64,000 nt of DNA, taken from positions 142,392 through 206,391 of the forward strand of contig CAYTCJ010000001.1 of NCBI GenBank assembly GCA_964436545.1. Reading direction: 5' to 3'. Below the pieces are notes generated by a model. It had not been told where the DNA came from. It was given only the letters and a program-made list of their open reading frames with translations, and did no database searches. Position numbers and translations under genes: made by a program. The stretch is from an uncultured Candidatus Saccharibacteria bacterium. Lineage in GTDB: Bacteria > Patescibacteriota > Doudnabacteria > UBA920. This document shows, one piece after another, positions 1 through 62,562 of this stretch; within the stretch, counting starts at the first letter, position 1, and each line of letters begins with the position of its first letter.

Positions 1-293
1 ATATGAGGGAAATGGTGGCTTTGCCGTATTATGTGGGCAAATTAATTTGGAGAGGTTTTTAGCCTATTTTCAGCCGGTTTATTAGGAAAAGGGCTTAAAT
101 TGACAAAAACATTGGGTTATATTACAATATGTTTAATATATAAATTTCCTAAGAAAGTTGGCGTCTGTAAAATATCAGACATAATCCTAAAATTGGATCC
201 TGAACTTAGTTCAGGATGACAATATAGGTAAGCCCACCGAGGATCATTACGCAGAAATACGCAAAATTAGTGCGGATTGAGGCGGAAGTTTTC

Positions 294-14401: not shown

Positions 14402-15103
14402 TTACGTTTGTTTTTTTATAACTACTTCGGCAAATAAGGTTTCTTGCTCGGCGCTGAATAACCGCTGTTTAATTAATTCCAGTAAGGCTAAAAAAGTTAC
14501 AATAATTTCGTCTTTATTCTTGGCTTGGCTGATTAAATCGCTTAACTTGGTTTCAATTTGAGAGGAAAGTTGACCTTGCAAGTGGTCAATTTTTTCTTGA
14601 ATGGAAATGGCTTCTTTAATTTTAGCTTTGGGCAGATTATCCAGCTCTTTAAGTGCGGATAAGATTTTTAGAATGCTTTTGTGTAAAGTTTCGGCCGAAA
14701 CGGAAGGATCGGGAAAAAAGTTAATTTTTTCTTCAAAGGTTAGAATCCTGCCCCAGCTTTGTCTGCGTTTGTTGTCTTGATGTTTTAAAAATTTGGCAAC
14801 TTCTTTAAATTGTTTATAGAGCAATAATTTACCTTCCAAATCAACTCCCGGATCTTCTTCTTCGGTAGTAATTTCTAAAGTGGGGAGAATGGCTTTGGAT
14901 TTAATTACCAAAAGTTTGGCAGCAATAGCTAAGTAATCGGCTAAGGTGGTTGGGTCAATGTCTTTAAGTTGTTTAATGTATTGCAAAAATTGCTCGGTAA
15001 CGTCTGCCAGAGCAATGGTGGTAATGTCCAATTGTCTTTGTTCAATTAAACTTAGCAGTAAATCCAACGGGCCTTCAAAGTGTTTGGTTTTGGTGTGAAG
15101 CAT
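14402..15103 (-). CDS. scpA: Segregation and condensation protein A
   Basis: FEGPLDLLLSLIEQRQLDITTIALADVTEQFLQY. Confidence 0.85.
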   Translation of the reverse strand: MLHTKTKHFEGPLDLLLSLIEQRQLDITTIALADVTEQFLQYIKQLKDIDPTTLADYLAIAAKLLVIKSKAILPTLEITTEEEDPGVDLEGKLLLYKQFKEVAKFLKHQDNKRRQSWGRILTFEEKINFFPDPSVSAETLHKSILKILSALKELDNLPKAKIKEAISIQEKIDHLQGQLSSQIETKLSDLISQAKNKDEIIVTFLALLELIKQRLFSAEQETLFAEVVIKKQT

Positions 15104-15110
15104 GCTTTTG

Positions 15111-15518
15111 TCTTGTCATCCCGTCCGCCAGCTGGCGGATTGATGCGGGATCCAGTTTATTTGATCAAGTTATTATATAAGTCTTGCCATTCAGGATTTT
15201 GTTTTTCAATTAAATCCAATTTCCATTTTCTTTTCCACTTTTTAAGCTGTTTTTCTCTTTCAATCGCAGATATTACTTCATTAGTTTGTTCATAATATAC
15301 TAAGGTGTGACATTTGTATCTCTTTGTAAAACCATCTGCTAAATTGTTTTTGTGTTGCCATGTTCTTTTTATTAAATCATTTGTGATCCCAATGTACAAA
15401 GTGCCGTTTCTTTTGCTTGCCATAATATATACATAGTAGTTTTTTTGATTTTTATACTTCATTGGGTGTTTTGTGTCTGGATCCCGCATCTCGGATGCAC
15501 TCGTGCGGGATGACAAGA
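15111..15518 (-). mobile_element. Inverted-repeat-bounded element carrying a small GIY-YIG nuclease ORF
   Basis: Ends 15111-15155 and 15477-15518 share TCTTGTCATCCCG...GATGCGGGATCCAG in inverted orientation; each end is also an internal hairpin. Confidence 0.65.
15157..15462 (-). CDS. GIY-YIG (UPF0213/COG2827-like) nuclease, ~101 aa
   Basis: YYVYIMASKRNGTLYIGITNDLIKRTWQHKNN...YYEQ; the ORF as listed extends to 15567 through the right repeat. Confidence 0.75.
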   Translation of the reverse strand: MKYKNQKNYYVYIMASKRNGTLYIGITNDLIKRTWQHKNNLADGFTKRYKCHTLVYYEQTNEVISAIEREKQLKKWKRKWKLDLIEKQNPEWQDLYNNLIK

Positions 15519-15541
15519 AGGACAAGGAAGGGAGCTGGTAG

Positions 15542-16048
15542 TTATCGTTTTGTTTTTGAGAAAACACCCTTTATAGGTAAAACCAACTTCTCAAAATCTT
15601 TCATTGATAACTCAAAGCTGTCAGTATAAGAGCCGGCAGATGAAATAAGTTTTTTGCTCTTGGACATTCCTTTATCTAACAAGGTTTTAACATTATATTG
15701 ACTCCCAAACGGGTGTAAAAGGCCAATTTTAGTTTTTAGTTTTGCTTTAATTTCCTTTTCTGTGGCGAGGCTGACCTTTTTTGCCTTTAGAGCGGTTTTA
15801 ATTCCTTTTAAATCTAAATATTTACCTGCTGGCAGAACAATTAAAACAAAGTCTTTATCTGCACGCACTAAAACCACCTTAGCAATGTCGCTAAGTTTTC
15901 GTTTAGTGGTTTGGGCTAAATCGTGCGCCGTATACACGACTTTGTGTTTAAGTAAATTATACTTAACTTTGGTTTTATCTAAGAATTTGGTTAAATCGTT
16001 AGACAGTTTGGTGATTTTTGGATTTTTTTTCTTCATATTTTTTTTCAA
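15542..16048 (-). CDS. YbaK/ProX-like aminoacyl-tRNA deacylase domain protein
   Basis: Length and pattern: VKYNLLKH...TAHDLAQ, GLLHPFG. Confidence 0.6.
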   Translation of the reverse strand: MKKNMKKKNPKITKLSNDLTKFLDKTKVKYNLLKHKVVYTAHDLAQTTKRKLSDIAKVVLVRADKDFVLIVLPAGKYLDLKGIKTALKAKKVSLATEKEIKAKLKTKIGLLHPFGSQYNVKTLLDKGMSKSKKLISSAGSYTDSFELSMKDFEKLVLPIKGVFSKTKR

Positions 16049-35454: not shown

Positions 35455-35584
35455 CTTTGAATTACAGAACTAAACTCTTTTGTCATTCCGGCCCCGAGCC
35501 GGAATCTATGGCTTGATAAATAAGAGAATGTTAGATCCTGAAACAAGTTCAGAATGACAGTAAAAGGACGTCTGTAATTCAAAG
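35455..35584. mobile_element. 130-bp MITE-like element with nested inverted repeats
   Basis: Outer TIR CTTTGAATTACAGA (35455-35468) / TCTGTAATTCAAAG (35571-35584); inner TGTCATTC/GAATGACA; internal hairpin ATTCCGGC-CCCGA-GCCGGAAT. Confidence 0.65.
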
Positions 35585-43151: not shown

Positions 43152-43559
43152 ATGGTTTTTGGCACTTTTGACATTTTGCATAAAGGCCACTTGAATTTTT
43201 TTAAACAAGCAAGGGGCTTATCTAACAATCCATTTTTAATTGTAAGCGTGGCGAGGGATAGAAATGTAAAAAAAATTAAAGGCCACAAACCCGCAAACAG
43301 CGAGCAAACCAGATTAAAATTTGTGGCATTGTCGGATTTGGTTAATAAAGCTGTTTTGGGCGGGGTTAAAAACCATTTACCGCATATTTTAAAAGCAAAG
43401 CCAAGCATTATTGCTTTAGGTTATGACCAAACGGTATATGTAAAAAATTTAAAACAAGATTTAACAAAAGCGGGTTTAAATGTTAAAGTGAAACGGTTAA
43501 AAGCTTTTAAACCGCATTTGTACAAATCATCTAAACTAAATTTCCGGAATACTAAATGA
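43152..43559 (+). CDS. Cytidylyltransferase-like nucleotidyltransferase (HxGH; TagD/RfaE-domain-II-like)
   Basis: MVFGTFDILHKGH. Confidence 0.7.
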   Translation: MVFGTFDILHKGHLNFFKQARGLSNNPFLIVSVARDRNVKKIKGHKPANSEQTRLKFVALSDLVNKAVLGGVKNHLPHILKAKPSIIALGYDQTVYVKNLKQDLTKAGLNVKVKRLKAFKPHLYKSSKLNFRNTK

Positions 43560-44653
43560 TAATAGGTATTGAAGCCGAACGAGCCAACACTTCGCAAAAA
43601 ACCGGAGTGGAGCATTATGCAAAACAATTAATTCTTCATTTGGCCAAACTTGACACTATAAATACATATATCTTGTATTTAAGGACTGAGCCGGAAGAAT
43701 GGTTTTTAGCTTTGCCGAAAAATTTTAAAGTTAAGGTTATGCCTTTTCCCGTATTTTGGACCCAAATTCGGTTATCGTGGGAAATGTTTTTCCGCCCTCC
43801 GGATGTGCTATTTGTGCCGGCTTCCGCTTTGCCTTTGGTGCACCCTAAAAATTCCGTAATTACTATTCACGATGTGGCTTGGCGTTATTTTCCGGAAAGT
43901 TTTACCGCGTTTATGAAATGGTTTTTAGAGTGGTCCACTCAATTGGCAGTTAAGCGGGCCGGTAAAATTATTGCGGTTTCCGAAAGTACTAAAAAAGATA
44001 TTTTAAAATTTTATAGAGTTAATGATAGAAATATTCAAGTAATTTATCACGGTTACGAGACATCCTCCCCCCTAGAGGGAGAGGGGAGGGTGAGGGGGCT
44101 ACCCGAAAAATACGTTTTATTTTTATCCACGCTTCAACCGAGAAAAAATTTAGCCGGTTTAATTGATGCTTTTAAATTACTAAAAATTGAGCACCCGGAT
44201 TTGCCTCATAAGTTAGTGGTGGTGGGTAAAGCGGGCTGGAAGTATGAGAGTATCATACAAAAAATTAAAGCCAACTCAGACACTGTTATATACTTAAGTT
44301 ATGTGAGCGATGCAGACCGGTTAGCCGTATTGTCGCAAGCGGATTTGTTAGTTTTACCTTCTTTGTACGAAGGTTTTGGCATGCAAATTCTAGAAGCTTT
44401 TGCCTTGCAAGTGCCGGTAGTTTTATCTAACACTTCCAGTTTGCCCGAGGTGGCCGGCGAAGCTGGGCTGTATTTTGATCCAAAAAAACCTCAGGATATT
44501 AAGCAGGCAATTGCCAGTGTGTTATTTGATAAGTCGTTGGCGGAAAATTTAACCGCCAAAGGGAAGGCACGATTAAAATTATTTAGTTGGGAAAAGTGCG
44601 CCCAAGAAACTTTAAATATTTTTTTGTCATTCCGTCCGCCAGCTGGGGATTGA
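43556..44653 (+). CDS. GT4-family glycosyltransferase
   Basis: EGFGMQILEAFALQVPVVLSNTSSLPEVAG; contains a G/C-hairpin insertion and a C-terminal 'TGTCATTCCG' hairpin. Confidence 0.8.
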   Translation: MIIGIEAERANTSQKTGVEHYAKQLILHLAKLDTINTYILYLRTEPEEWFLALPKNFKVKVMPFPVFWTQIRLSWEMFFRPPDVLFVPASALPLVHPKNSVITIHDVAWRYFPESFTAFMKWFLEWSTQLAVKRAGKIIAVSESTKKDILKFYRVNDRNIQVIYHGYETSSPLEGEGRVRGLPEKYVLFLSTLQPRKNLAGLIDAFKLLKIEHPDLPHKLVVVGKAGWKYESIIQKIKANSDTVIYLSYVSDADRLAVLSQADLLVLPSLYEGFGMQILEAFALQVPVVLSNTSSLPEVAGEAGLYFDPKKPQDIKQAIASVLFDKSLAENLTAKGKARLKLFSWEKCAQETLNIFLSFRPPAGD

Positions 44654-44663
44654 TCCGGAATCT
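44625..44663. repeat. Solo hairpin repeat TTGTCATTCCGTCCGCCAGCTGGGGATTGATCCGGAATC overlapping the GT4 stop
   Basis: Near-identical to the left terminal hairpin of the GIY-YIG element at 15111-15155. Confidence 0.7.
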
Positions 44664-44671
44664 ATTCGCCT

Positions 44672-61823: not shown

Positions 61824-62562
61824 GTTTAAAGCAAACTCATAAGCCGAATTCTGTTCACCCCGTTAGAAGTCCGGTGTCTAAAGACATCGGCAGACGCCTT
61901 TTGGCGTCTTACTTCTAACGGGGTTAACAATCATCTCTCTGGTCCCGATGTTACCACCGGGATCTTGCGACCTACCAAATTTGGTCTTGCACTCAAGTAA
62001 GAATTTAGCCGTTTCACCCGAGCGTTAGCGAGAATGTCCTACGAAGCCTTAGCATAAGTAGGCTACTCGTTTATTACTCGGCTCGCCCTGCCCTTTGCTT
62101 GCAAAGAGCGGGGCGTCCCGACTCTTTCGTATCGGGACGTCTCTGTTCGCATCTCGCACCTTACGGTGGACGGGGATTACCCGCTACTATTTTTGATAAC
62201 TCTTAAGCGGTCATCAAATAAGTGTTCGGACTTTCCTCCCCCCACTTTCTATCCTTTATTACAATTCAAAAGCTTGCAAGCTATTTTGAATACGTTTTTT
62301 TAGTTGCCCATAACTGCCTTTGAATTGTTTGAGATTTTTTTCTCTGGCTCTCGCATCTTTCTCTGATGCAAAAGCTTCGTAGTAAATCAATCCAACAGGG
62401 AGCCTATGTTTGGTATATCCTGATTGCAAAGACATATGTTCCTTAATTCTTCGCTTTAGGTCACTTGTGTAACCTATATAGATTTGACCACCTTTGGATA
62501 TTTTCAAAGCATAGACATAAAACATAGAAAGTGGGGGGCGATTGTTCGGTTTGCTTTAAACC
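61824..62562 (-). ncRNA. rnpB: RNase P RNA (bacterial type) interrupted in its P3 helix by a hairpin-bounded GIY-YIG ORF
   Basis: On the minus strand: P1 GUUUAAAGCAAAC/GUUUGCUUUAAAC; P4 halves GAGGAAAGUCCGAAC and ACAGAAUUCGGCUUAUG; GGGUGAAACGGC present. Confidence 0.8.
62259..62525 (-). CDS. GIY-YIG (UPF0213/COG2827-like) nuclease, 88 aa, inside rnpB
   Basis: MFYVYALKISKGGQIYIGYTSDLKRRIKEH...YYEAF; flanked by 15-bp inverted repeats at 62238-62252 and 62524-62538. Confidence 0.75.
   Translation of the reverse strand: MFYVYALKISKGGQIYIGYTSDLKRRIKEHMSLQSGYTKHRLPVGLIYYEAFASEKDARAREKNLKQFKGSYGQLKKRIQNSLQAFEL

Follow-up and report, generated by a model that had tools for sequence, protein, structure and literature searches.

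A GIY-YIG nuclease gene between inverted hairpins at the ybaK-scpA junction of a Saccharibacteria genome is a probable member of the known Ssn/NTS system

A stretch of 64,000 nucleotides (nt) from contig CAYTCJ010000001.1 of an uncultured Candidatus Saccharibacteria bacterium (assembly GCA_964436545.1; 38% GC; hereafter the window) carries a small GIY-YIG nuclease gene between a ybaK-like gene and scpA, and this gene is enclosed by two hairpin-forming repeats that are inverted relative to one another. This cassette is very probably a Saccharibacteria member of the known Ssn/NTS(SRM) system and not a new family. A first-pass annotation, made from the raw sequence, had suggested a family of compact mobile or selfish cassettes. 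However, the same layout has already been published as NTS/SRM-ssnA-NTS/SRM (PMC11893778).

The Ssn family was described by Chenal et al. (Nat Commun 2025, PMC11893778) from SsnA of Neisseria meningitidis (NMV_0044/NMB0047) and is listed in CDD as cd10448, GIY-YIG_unchar_3. The ssnA product is a single-domain GIY-YIG protein of 94 aa, and ssnA homologues across bacteria are flanked by NTS-like repeats, termed SRM (PMC11893778). The NTS of Neisseria is an oriented 28-nt hairpin repeat with the consensus CGTCATTCCCGCGMAVGCGGGAATCYRG, of which the dRS3 palindrome forms a part. SsnA binds the NTS as single-stranded DNA (ssDNA) only and cuts it a few nt upstream; double-stranded DNA (dsDNA), RNA and the reverse strand are not acted on. 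Binding depends most on the C directly 3′ of the palindrome and cleavage on the three nt (GTC) in front of it, and the substitutions Y6A, Y17A and E64A abolish cutting (PMC11893778). Site-specific cleavage restricted to ssDNA has been demonstrated for the enzymes of N. meningitidis, N. elongata, N. wadsworthii and Wolbachia, with the cut position varying among homologues, and the Ssn system lowers transformation of N. meningitidis by NTS-flanked DNA (PMC11893778). The authors note that the NTS-ssnA-NTS layout "is identical to" that of an insertion sequence (IS) and resembles REP/RAYT, the repetitive extragenic palindromes (REP) and their RAYT proteins, and they suggest domestication; Patescibacteria go unmentioned in their paper (PMC11893778). 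A search by sequence motif led to this work. Searches of the literature linking GIY-YIG with REP, inverted repeats or mobile elements yielded nothing relevant, and no follow-up on Ssn mobility, structure or Patescibacteria was found.

The gene itself (15157..15462, minus strand, stop codon included) encodes 101 aa that match Pfam GIY-YIG (PF01541, E 1.1e-15) over residues 8-82, bearing out the ~101-aa GIY-YIG open reading frame (ORF) called at first pass. The GIY-YIG domain is the sole ORF content of the cassette, and no DDE, HUH/Y1 or serine transposase is encoded. A longer form of 136 aa with a GTG start (15157..15567) was rejected as the real gene because most homologues are 94-100 aa long and start near the window ATG at 15462; this form would also run through the 5′ hairpin and overlap the stop codon of ybaK. 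The 5′ (upstream) hairpin, TCTTGTCATCCCGCACGAGTGCATCCGAGATGCGGGATCCAG (15477..15518, minus strand, forward on the gene strand), ends 14 nt before the ATG and reads TCTTGTCATCCCG-CACGAGTGCATCCGA-GATGCGGGATCCAG in gene orientation. The 3′ (downstream) hairpin, TCTTGTCATCCCG-TCCGCCAGCTGGCGGATT-GATGCGGGATCCAG (15111..15155, plus strand, inverted relative to the 5′ hairpin), starts 1 nt past the stop codon and stops 7 nt short of the ATG of scpA. The outer arms (15111-15123/15506-15518, 13 nt) and inner arms (15142-15155/15477-15490, 14 nt) of the inverted repeat are 100% complementary across 321-382 nt, and the middle 15-18 nt of the left and right ends are unrelated to each other. One hairpin motif (TGTCATCCCG...CGGGATCCAG) thus accounts for both ends: its two halves recur in inverted orientation, separated at each end by a different loop insert. 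Both read TGTC-ATCCCG...CGGGAT-CCAG, with GTC directly 5′ of the palindrome and C directly 3′. As ssDNA each end folds alone, the left at -10.9 kcal/mol (z -3.6) and the right at -9.9 to -10.2 kcal/mol (z about -2.5), confirming the hairpin-forming, mutually inverted ends reported at first pass. A perfect 16-nt palindrome (TCCGCCAGCTGGCGGA, 15124..15139) is nested in the loop of the 3′ hairpin, where it appears both as a reverse self-match of the left end and as the inner stem of the fold. A T-tract is absent from both ends, and neither end was scored as terminator-like.

The cassette shares several features with the Ssn family. Ssn proteins have fewer than 150 aa (about 94-100 aa in the family) and no extra DNA-binding domain, like the single-domain protein encoded here. 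Oriented hairpins of inverted orientation stand in both flanks (within 500 bp), each stem being preceded by GTCAT and followed by ATC(C/T)A, and the position and orientation of the 5′ hairpin agree with the family norm. The GTC and C determinants are kept at both ends, and extra solo repeats occur in the genome. The cassette differs from the published examples in its host, a member of the Saccharibacteria (Patescibacteria), in its stems, which are ATCCCG/ATTCCG and not ATTCCCGCG, and in its loops, which hold inserts of 13-18 nt, one of them the nested palindrome.

The association between gene and hairpin extends to 80 genomic loci (L001-L080) encoding homologues with 55-80% identity to the window protein. 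These come from Patescibacteria, Planctomycetota, Ignavibacteria, Nitrospirota, Zixibacteria, Proteobacteria (including cultured Shewanella and Undibacterium) and others. Nearly all carry TGTCATTCC-stem-loop-GGAATCCAG shortly before the ATG, usually at a distance of 4-23 nt, and CTGGATTCC-...-GGAATGACA in inverted orientation shortly after the stop codon, usually at 0-9 nt. With a structural detector, a forward hairpin was found within 150 nt upstream at 50 of the 80 loci and a reverse hairpin within 150 nt downstream at 55, with both present at 37. The background hairpin density in the same loci predicts ~0.017 per side, equivalent to ~1.3 per 80, and the oriented motif beside homologous genes in unrelated contexts is ~40-fold over this background. 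Imperfect hairpin variants are present in most of the 12 'negative' loci. The earlier proposal of a cassette family with solo hairpins is therefore upheld, across phyla.

Stem covariation was assessed on a separate set, as a perfect-stem detector is unfit for this purpose. Sequences were chosen by unpaired anchors alone (YGTCA-N18-TCYA), giving 154 matches versus 12 in shuffled sequence. At least 6 of 7 interior pairs are present in 86 of the 97 unique sequences selected in this way. On the anchor alignment, 92% of cells in the 8-bp stem are paired versus 23-44% in slid controls, and there are 110 double-sided stem changes versus 27.5 expected from shuffles (observed values reached in 0/500 shuffles). 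The stem covaries strongly, supporting a local hairpin at each end. The first-pass description of a nuclease gene in the loop of one long stem does not fit these data: each end folds locally, solo copies exist and the covariation lies within each hairpin. Large insertions are tolerated in SRM loops. In L001 (3710-3899) a second hairpin is nested in the loop of the upstream SRM, and in the Marinicella loci L052 (3880-4016) and L071 (3850-3986) the stem halves lie ~60-70 nt apart with variable sequence between them.

The window protein has more than 7,300 database homologues, and identities of 70-80% persist in Patescibacteria, Omnitrophota, Flavobacterium and Rhodocyclales. The exact Neisseria NTS (≤1 mismatch) is found in 11 of the 80 loci, where the proteins share ~58-73% identity with the window protein across the part that aligns. 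All family-invariant residues are present, including Y12, Y23 and E70, whose positions are invariant or nearly so across family alignments. These three align with Y6, Y17 and E64 of an NTS-flanked 94-aa betaproteobacterial homologue (Undibacterium, L059), the same residue numbers as those mutated in N. meningitidis SsnA. The AlphaFold model is one compact GIY-YIG domain with two C-terminal helices (predicted local distance difference test score, pLDDT, 92.9), and the closest solved structures are the GIY-YIG folds of UPF0213 protein 1zg2 and of Slx1; an Ssn structure was not found in the PDB. The label 'UPF0213-like' used at first pass was imprecise though the fold is shared. The solved UPF0213 (YhbQ-type) proteins 1ywl (E 0.007) and 1zg2 (E 0.025) are marginal sequence matches, with 21-25% identity in structural alignment, and no hairpin-repeat association is known for the UPF0213/YhbQ/YazA type. 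Slx1, whose nuclease domain also shares the fold, is structure-specific on branched duplex DNA and requires Slx4. NCBIfam contains no informative family for the window protein, giving a weak match to TIGR01453 (E 0.002).

It is very probable that the protein is of the Ssn family and acts as its relatives do, recognising its hairpin in ssDNA and nicking ~3 nt 5′ of GTCAT. Modelled on the Neisseria and Wolbachia enzymes, it would have neither duplex DNA nor RNA as substrate. Where DNA becomes single-stranded, as in incoming transforming DNA or in intermediates of replication and repair, the repeat would fold into its hairpin. The protein would then bind the stem and the C just 3′ of it, read the GTC just 5′ and cut the same strand ~3 nt further 5′. 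Cleavage would fall on the plus strand at the left end and on the minus strand at the right. Since the ends are inverted, the predicted nicks would thus lie on opposite strands, at 15110/15111 (+) and 15518/15519 (-), and these positions are the outer limits of the perfect inverted repeat. Solo hairpins would be further target sites in the genome. As candidate roles we infer either control of incoming ssDNA (transformation, conjugation or ssDNA phages) or that of a domesticated selfish module.

Several points weigh against this assignment and the proposed action. The published SRM search pattern, HGTCWYN(0-2)YYVSBRHN(0-5)WNVSBRGN(0-2)RNCYNB, built from 29 genomes of 4 phyla (PMC11893778), gives 0 matches in the 64-kb window when applied strictly. 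The right end is recovered only if loops of up to 20 nt are allowed in place of 5, and the stem composition of the left end and of the solo copies does not suit the pattern. The loops hold 13-18-nt inserts, one a nested palindrome, and therefore the pattern misses every window copy. On the 80 loci, the pattern found 21 upstream and 18 downstream matches versus the 50 and 55 found by the structural criterion. Because it misses most hairpins of these loci too, we regard the failure as a limit of the search aid and not as exclusion from the Ssn family. The pattern is biased towards GC-rich stems of the CGCG type and loops of ≤5 nt. Family membership was defined in the original work by tblastn E < 1e-10 to N. 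meningitidis SsnA or by assignment to cd10448 (PMC11893778), and placement in the cd10448 clade rests here on homologues flanked by the exact NTS. The 3-nt cut offset is taken from oligonucleotide lengths for the Neisseria enzyme, and the position varies among homologues; the loop inserts may alter recognition. More generally, ssDNA cleavage, cut positions and biological role are carried over to this protein by homology.

The history of this copy can be read from its neighbourhood. The genes around it are co-directional and run aspS, a small membrane ORF, the ybaK-like tRNA_edit gene, the GIY-YIG ORF, scpA and scpB. Two Saccharibacteria metagenome-assembled genomes (MAGs), L001 and L002, share with the window the arrangement aspS-ybaK-ssn-scpA-small ORF-scpB-ROK. 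Identities to the window in L001/L002 are 80/77% for Ssn, 78/80% for AspS, 75/77% for ScpA and 65/58% for YbaK. Between L001 and L002 the ratio of nonsynonymous to synonymous substitution rates (dN/dS) of ssn is 0.06, synonymous sites being saturated versus the window. Both ends have kept their hairpins in all three genomes, and the loops vary. Where a stem has changed, the two ends of that genome have changed in concert (GCA/TGC in the window, GGA/TCC in L002). The cassette here is old, vertically inherited, functional and under strong purifying selection, because it occupies the same site in three syntenic genomes, has diverged as its housekeeping neighbours have and has a dN/dS of ~0.06. 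It is not a recent insertion.

Copies of the motif are also found away from the cassette. TGTCATYCCG (≤1 mismatch) occurs 9 times in the 64-kb window versus 3.3 expected, a count reached in 0/100 shuffles, and 5-6 hairpin copies can be recognised, 2 of them flanking the gene and 3-4 solo. The clearest solo copy (44624..44664, plus strand) reproduces the 3′ hairpin together with its loop insert: 44624-44654 matches the left end at 94% identity across 32 nt, the idiosyncratic insert (here at 44635-44649) included, and the stem carries a compensatory C-G to T-A change. As the private insert is common to this copy and the left end and the stem change is compensatory, hairpins have been copied within the genome with their pairing maintained. 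The GT4 gene (43556..44653) reads into this hairpin, which supplies its last ~10 codons and stop codon (…FLSFRPPAGD; C-terminus ...NIFLSFRPPAGD*), as had been noted at first pass; the gene after GT4 starts 18 nt downstream. The motif relative reported earlier in a putative miniature inverted-repeat transposable element (MITE) at 35455-35584 was also recovered. It consists of a forward hairpin (TGTCATTCCGGCCCCGAGCCGGAATCTA, 35482..35508, plus strand, 8-bp stem, -8.7 kcal/mol) and a degenerate reverse one (TGTCATTCTGAACTTGTTTCAGGATCT, 35535..35561, minus strand) with a weak fold (-2.7 kcal/mol) and a 1-mismatch motif match at 35550-35559 (-). The two face each other as a gene-less forward/reverse pair, the arrangement seen around ssn. 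This pair is enclosed by a separate perfect 15-nt inverted repeat (CTTTGAATTACAGA.../...TCTGTAATTCAAAG), and the 130-nt unit as a whole has a strong fold (z -5.1). A further solo hairpin with the canonical short loop, missing from the first-pass annotation, lies at 194..220 on the minus strand (TGTCATCCTGAACTAAGTTCAGGATCCA, 9-bp stem, -8.7 kcal/mol).

At the level of the family there is evidence of relocation. The ORFs of L017 and L022 are 88% identical in nucleotide sequence and have unrelated flanks, with homology starting at TGTCATTCC and ending at GGAATGACA; the L022 copy has an in-frame stop. Multiple or tandem copies per genome or contig were seen in L051/L078, L037/L067, L056 and L078. 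Several Ssn-like ORFs, some apparently fragmentary, stand in tandem or near one another in L078 (3163-4273), L056 (4001-5498) and L023 (2129-3774), among them three that a Melioribacteraceae MAG carries within 1.1 kb. No target-site duplication is visible at the window cassette or in the L017/L022 comparison.

The slot between the ybaK-like gene (15542..16048, PF04073) and scpA (14402..15103, PF02616), whose identities as neighbours agree with the earlier calls, was compared in relatives ranked by ScpA identity to the window (75-94%). It holds a PDDEXK_3 gene at 94% (L088/89) and 90% (L081/82), a DUF559 gene at 85% (L090) and another GIY-YIG allele at 84% (L091), the last with GTCATTGCGAG...GAAGCAATC hairpins upstream and a downstream hairpin as in the window. 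It is empty at 82% (L083/84), carries a UPF0213-like GIY-YIG gene fused to scpA with GTTCGAG/CTCGAAC flanks at 78% (L092/93), and is empty again at 77% (L085/86) and 75% (L087). The Ssn cassette is found at 77% (L002) and 75% (L001). In relatives closer than L001 and L002, then, either nothing or another small nuclease gene occupies the slot. Junctions lacking the element, which had been proposed as a check, do exist. The empty-slot relatives use different hairpins, and neither an SRM scar nor an excision product was seen at the empty ybaK-scpA junctions.

The ybaK-scpA slot (window 15104-15541) is a turnover hotspot of small nuclease genes. Across relatives it contains at least five unrelated ones (Ssn-type GIY-YIG, GTCATTGCGAG-type GIY-YIG, UPF0213-like, PDDEXK_3 and DUF559/Vsr-like) or nothing. 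Most have a private flanking inverted repeat; the DUF559 gene is flanked by a repeat also found at other junctions of the slot. These comparisons together show the hairpin-gene-hairpin unit to be what is relocated or exchanged at the family level, and the cassette behaves as a domesticated or slowly moving selfish module. The first-pass idea of a mobile cassette stands in part: L017/L022 and the polymorphic slot speak for relocation in the family, but the window copy is old.

Other observations at this slot concern its remaining occupants. The PDDEXK_3 (PF13366) genes of relatives have their own inverted arrays of short motifs, for example TCCGAAT.../...ATTCGGA and ACAGAT.../...ATCTGT, with 3-4 copies per side, which suggests a second kind of nuclease-plus-repeat cassette. 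Similar ATCCG(T/G) runs follow the ssn cassette on its downstream side in L001, L002 and L091 and persist in L085 at the 'empty' junction. The positions concerned by these observations include L081 2016-2501, L088 492-978, L083 1386-1850 and L085 1470-1916. The L091 locus (1779-2501) is a mosaic. Its GIY-YIG allele is of the REKQIKAGSRQKK type, with the GTCATTGCGAG...GAAGCAATC hairpins on its upstream side, and the final codons (QNPEWKDLY) and the hairpin downstream (CTGGATCCCGCATC...GCGGGATGACAAGAC) are those of the window/L001 type, suggesting recombination inside the cassette. In L092 (2501-3535) and L093 (275-1309) the UPF0213-like ORF has lost its stop codon and is called as a 344-aa in-frame fusion with ScpA, with GTTCGAG...CTCGAAC inverted repeats. 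A further hairpin repeat family (…CTCCCCTTAtcTTAAGGGGAG…), sometimes in tandem, is present at the same junctions (L083 2374-2501; L090 661-706 and 1086-1105; L091 ~2290-2450). It is possible, though doubtful, that a small nuclease with its own flanking repeat represents a general, unrecognised class of nuclease-only selfish cassettes, of which Ssn/SRM is the first to be characterised. Such cassettes would spread via ssDNA cleavage together with transformation or repair by the host, and in the streamlined genomes of the candidate phyla radiation (CPR) one would take the place of another at the landing sites that they share.

These results also bear on other explanations of the cassette. It could be an active, autonomous IS-like element, whose GIY-YIG protein cuts the terminal hairpins so that the unit is excised or copied, the solo hairpins and the gene-less pair being MITE-like derivatives; the Ssn authors raised the same hypothesis (PMC11893778). 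The terminal inverted hairpins with predicted cuts at the limits of the inverted repeat are as such an element would have them, and homology that ends at the hairpins in L017/L022 (88% ORFs, unrelated flanks), the multiple and tandem copies (L051/L078, L037/L067, L078, L056), the solo copy at 44624 with the private loop insert of the left end, indicating that hairpins are copied within the genome, and the polymorphic slot all fit with it. However, the window copy is orthologous in three genomes, at a housekeeping identity of 75-80% and with a dN/dS of 0.06. Moreover, no target-site duplication is visible, no excision product or scarred empty site was seen among the empty junctions, and, whereas IS200/IS605 excise from a single strand, the two cuts predicted here fall on different strands. 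GIY-YIG hydrolases are not known to transfer or ligate strands, which also counts against an element of this kind, and we consider it unlikely here. Far less probable is a classical free-standing homing endonuclease like phage T4 Seg or I-TevI, which would cut dsDNA in cassette-less alleles and be copied in by repair, leaving the hairpins incidental. The shared GIY-YIG domain, the weak TIGR01453 match (E 0.002) and the polymorphic slot are compatible with homing, but the protein is a bare catalytic domain of ~100 aa without a DNA-binding extension and its characterised homologues leave dsDNA uncut. In addition, the recognised motif is in the cassette's own flanks and absent from empty sites, and the hairpins covary and travel with the gene.

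The two remaining alternatives concern the ends themselves, and both are highly improbable. The ends might be ordinary terminators or regulatory stem-loops of the ybaK-scpA operon with the GIY-YIG gene merely lying between them, given that both are stable intergenic stem-loops in a co-directional gene row; the first-pass annotation had named this as the outcome that would count against it. As the main explanation it was rejected: neither end has a T-tract or was scored terminator-like, the oriented motif flanks homologues in unrelated contexts across phyla at ~40-fold over background, and the covariation is within each hairpin. One solo copy also overlaps coding sequence, and the hairpins of the empty-slot relatives are different ones. 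A side effect on scpA expression is possible. Alternatively, the two ends might pair as one long-range stem with the gene in its loop and act at the RNA level, in the design of a second GIY-YIG ORF within rnpB. Such a stem could form, as the perfect complementarity of the 13-nt and 14-nt arms spans 321-382 nt. Nevertheless, the covariation backs local hairpins, solo hairpins exist and the characterised Ssn enzymes bind a single hairpin, not RNA, and the rnpB ORF is flanked by an unrelated 15-nt inverted repeat that is apparently a native helix of RNase P RNA.

The cassette also resembles other repeat systems. The Neisseria dRS3 repeats and NIME arrays have the core palindrome ATTCC...GGAAT and so belong to the same motif class, dRS3 being contained in the NTS. 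However, dRS3 was defined as a 20-bp palindrome without orientation, and its known roles were those of a target for phage integration and a hotspot of recombination; it was not linked to a nuclease cassette. With REP/BIME and RAYT, and with IS200/IS605, the cassette has in common a gene between inverted hairpin repeats that are also scattered solo and in pairs, recognition of the hairpin in ssDNA, and the flavour of a domesticated transposase, with single-copy vertical inheritance alongside spread of the repeat. It differs from them in that the enzyme is a GIY-YIG hydrolase, not HUH/Y1, for which neither a covalent intermediate nor strand transfer is known to occur, and the predicted cuts are on opposite strands, not on one.

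The rnpB-embedded ORF had been described as having the same architecture as the cassette. It encodes 88 aa (62259..62525, minus strand) and lies within the class A RNase P RNA at 61824-62555 (minus strand), which was detected at a relaxed threshold (Rfam RF00010, 58.6 bits, E 1e-16) and falls below the gathering score of 100 because of the embedded ORF. At the gathering threshold Rfam returned one tRNA and nothing else in the 64-kb window. On alignment the two proteins are 38% identical over 72 aa, and the rnpB ORF is without the C-terminal WK..LIE..NP.W segment of Ssn proteins. Its flanks contain no SRM hairpins and instead a different, 15-nt inverted repeat (CCCCCCACTTTCTAT/ATAGAAAGTGGGGGG) directly 5′ of the conserved GAGGAAAGUCC, so the likeness does not hold. 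A 15-bp helix (CCCCCCACUUUCUAU/AUAGAAAGUGGGGGG) carries the ORF in its loop, and the flanking repeat looks like helix P3 of RNase P RNA. Judged from sequence, the rnpB GIY-YIG is of a different subfamily and a phenomenon separate from the Ssn cassette. Non-intron GIY-YIG insertions have been reported in CPR rRNA genes (PMC11270868), to which the rnpB case is akin; our literature search found no paper on GIY-YIG insertions in bacterial rnpB.

The cassette layout, found here from raw sequence, was already published in 2025 and adds little by itself. The remaining novelty is the nuclease-cassette hotspot together with the comparative evidence on mobility. The Ssn/hairpin system is extended to Saccharibacteria/Patescibacteria, and the published SRM pattern misses variants that are richer in AT or have long loops, among them all copies in the window and over half of the hairpins in the 80 loci. 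The comparison also provides evidence on the mobility of NTS-ssn-NTS, setting homology bounded by the cassette in unrelated contexts against long vertical retention at one locus, and it reveals a hotspot where small nuclease cassettes replace one another. New enzyme-hairpin pairs are of practical interest as tools for cutting ssDNA. Patescibacteria are thought to rely heavily on DNA uptake. A hairpin-directed ssDNA nuclease of a kind that limits transformation in Neisseria could therefore matter for how Patescibacteria control incoming DNA.

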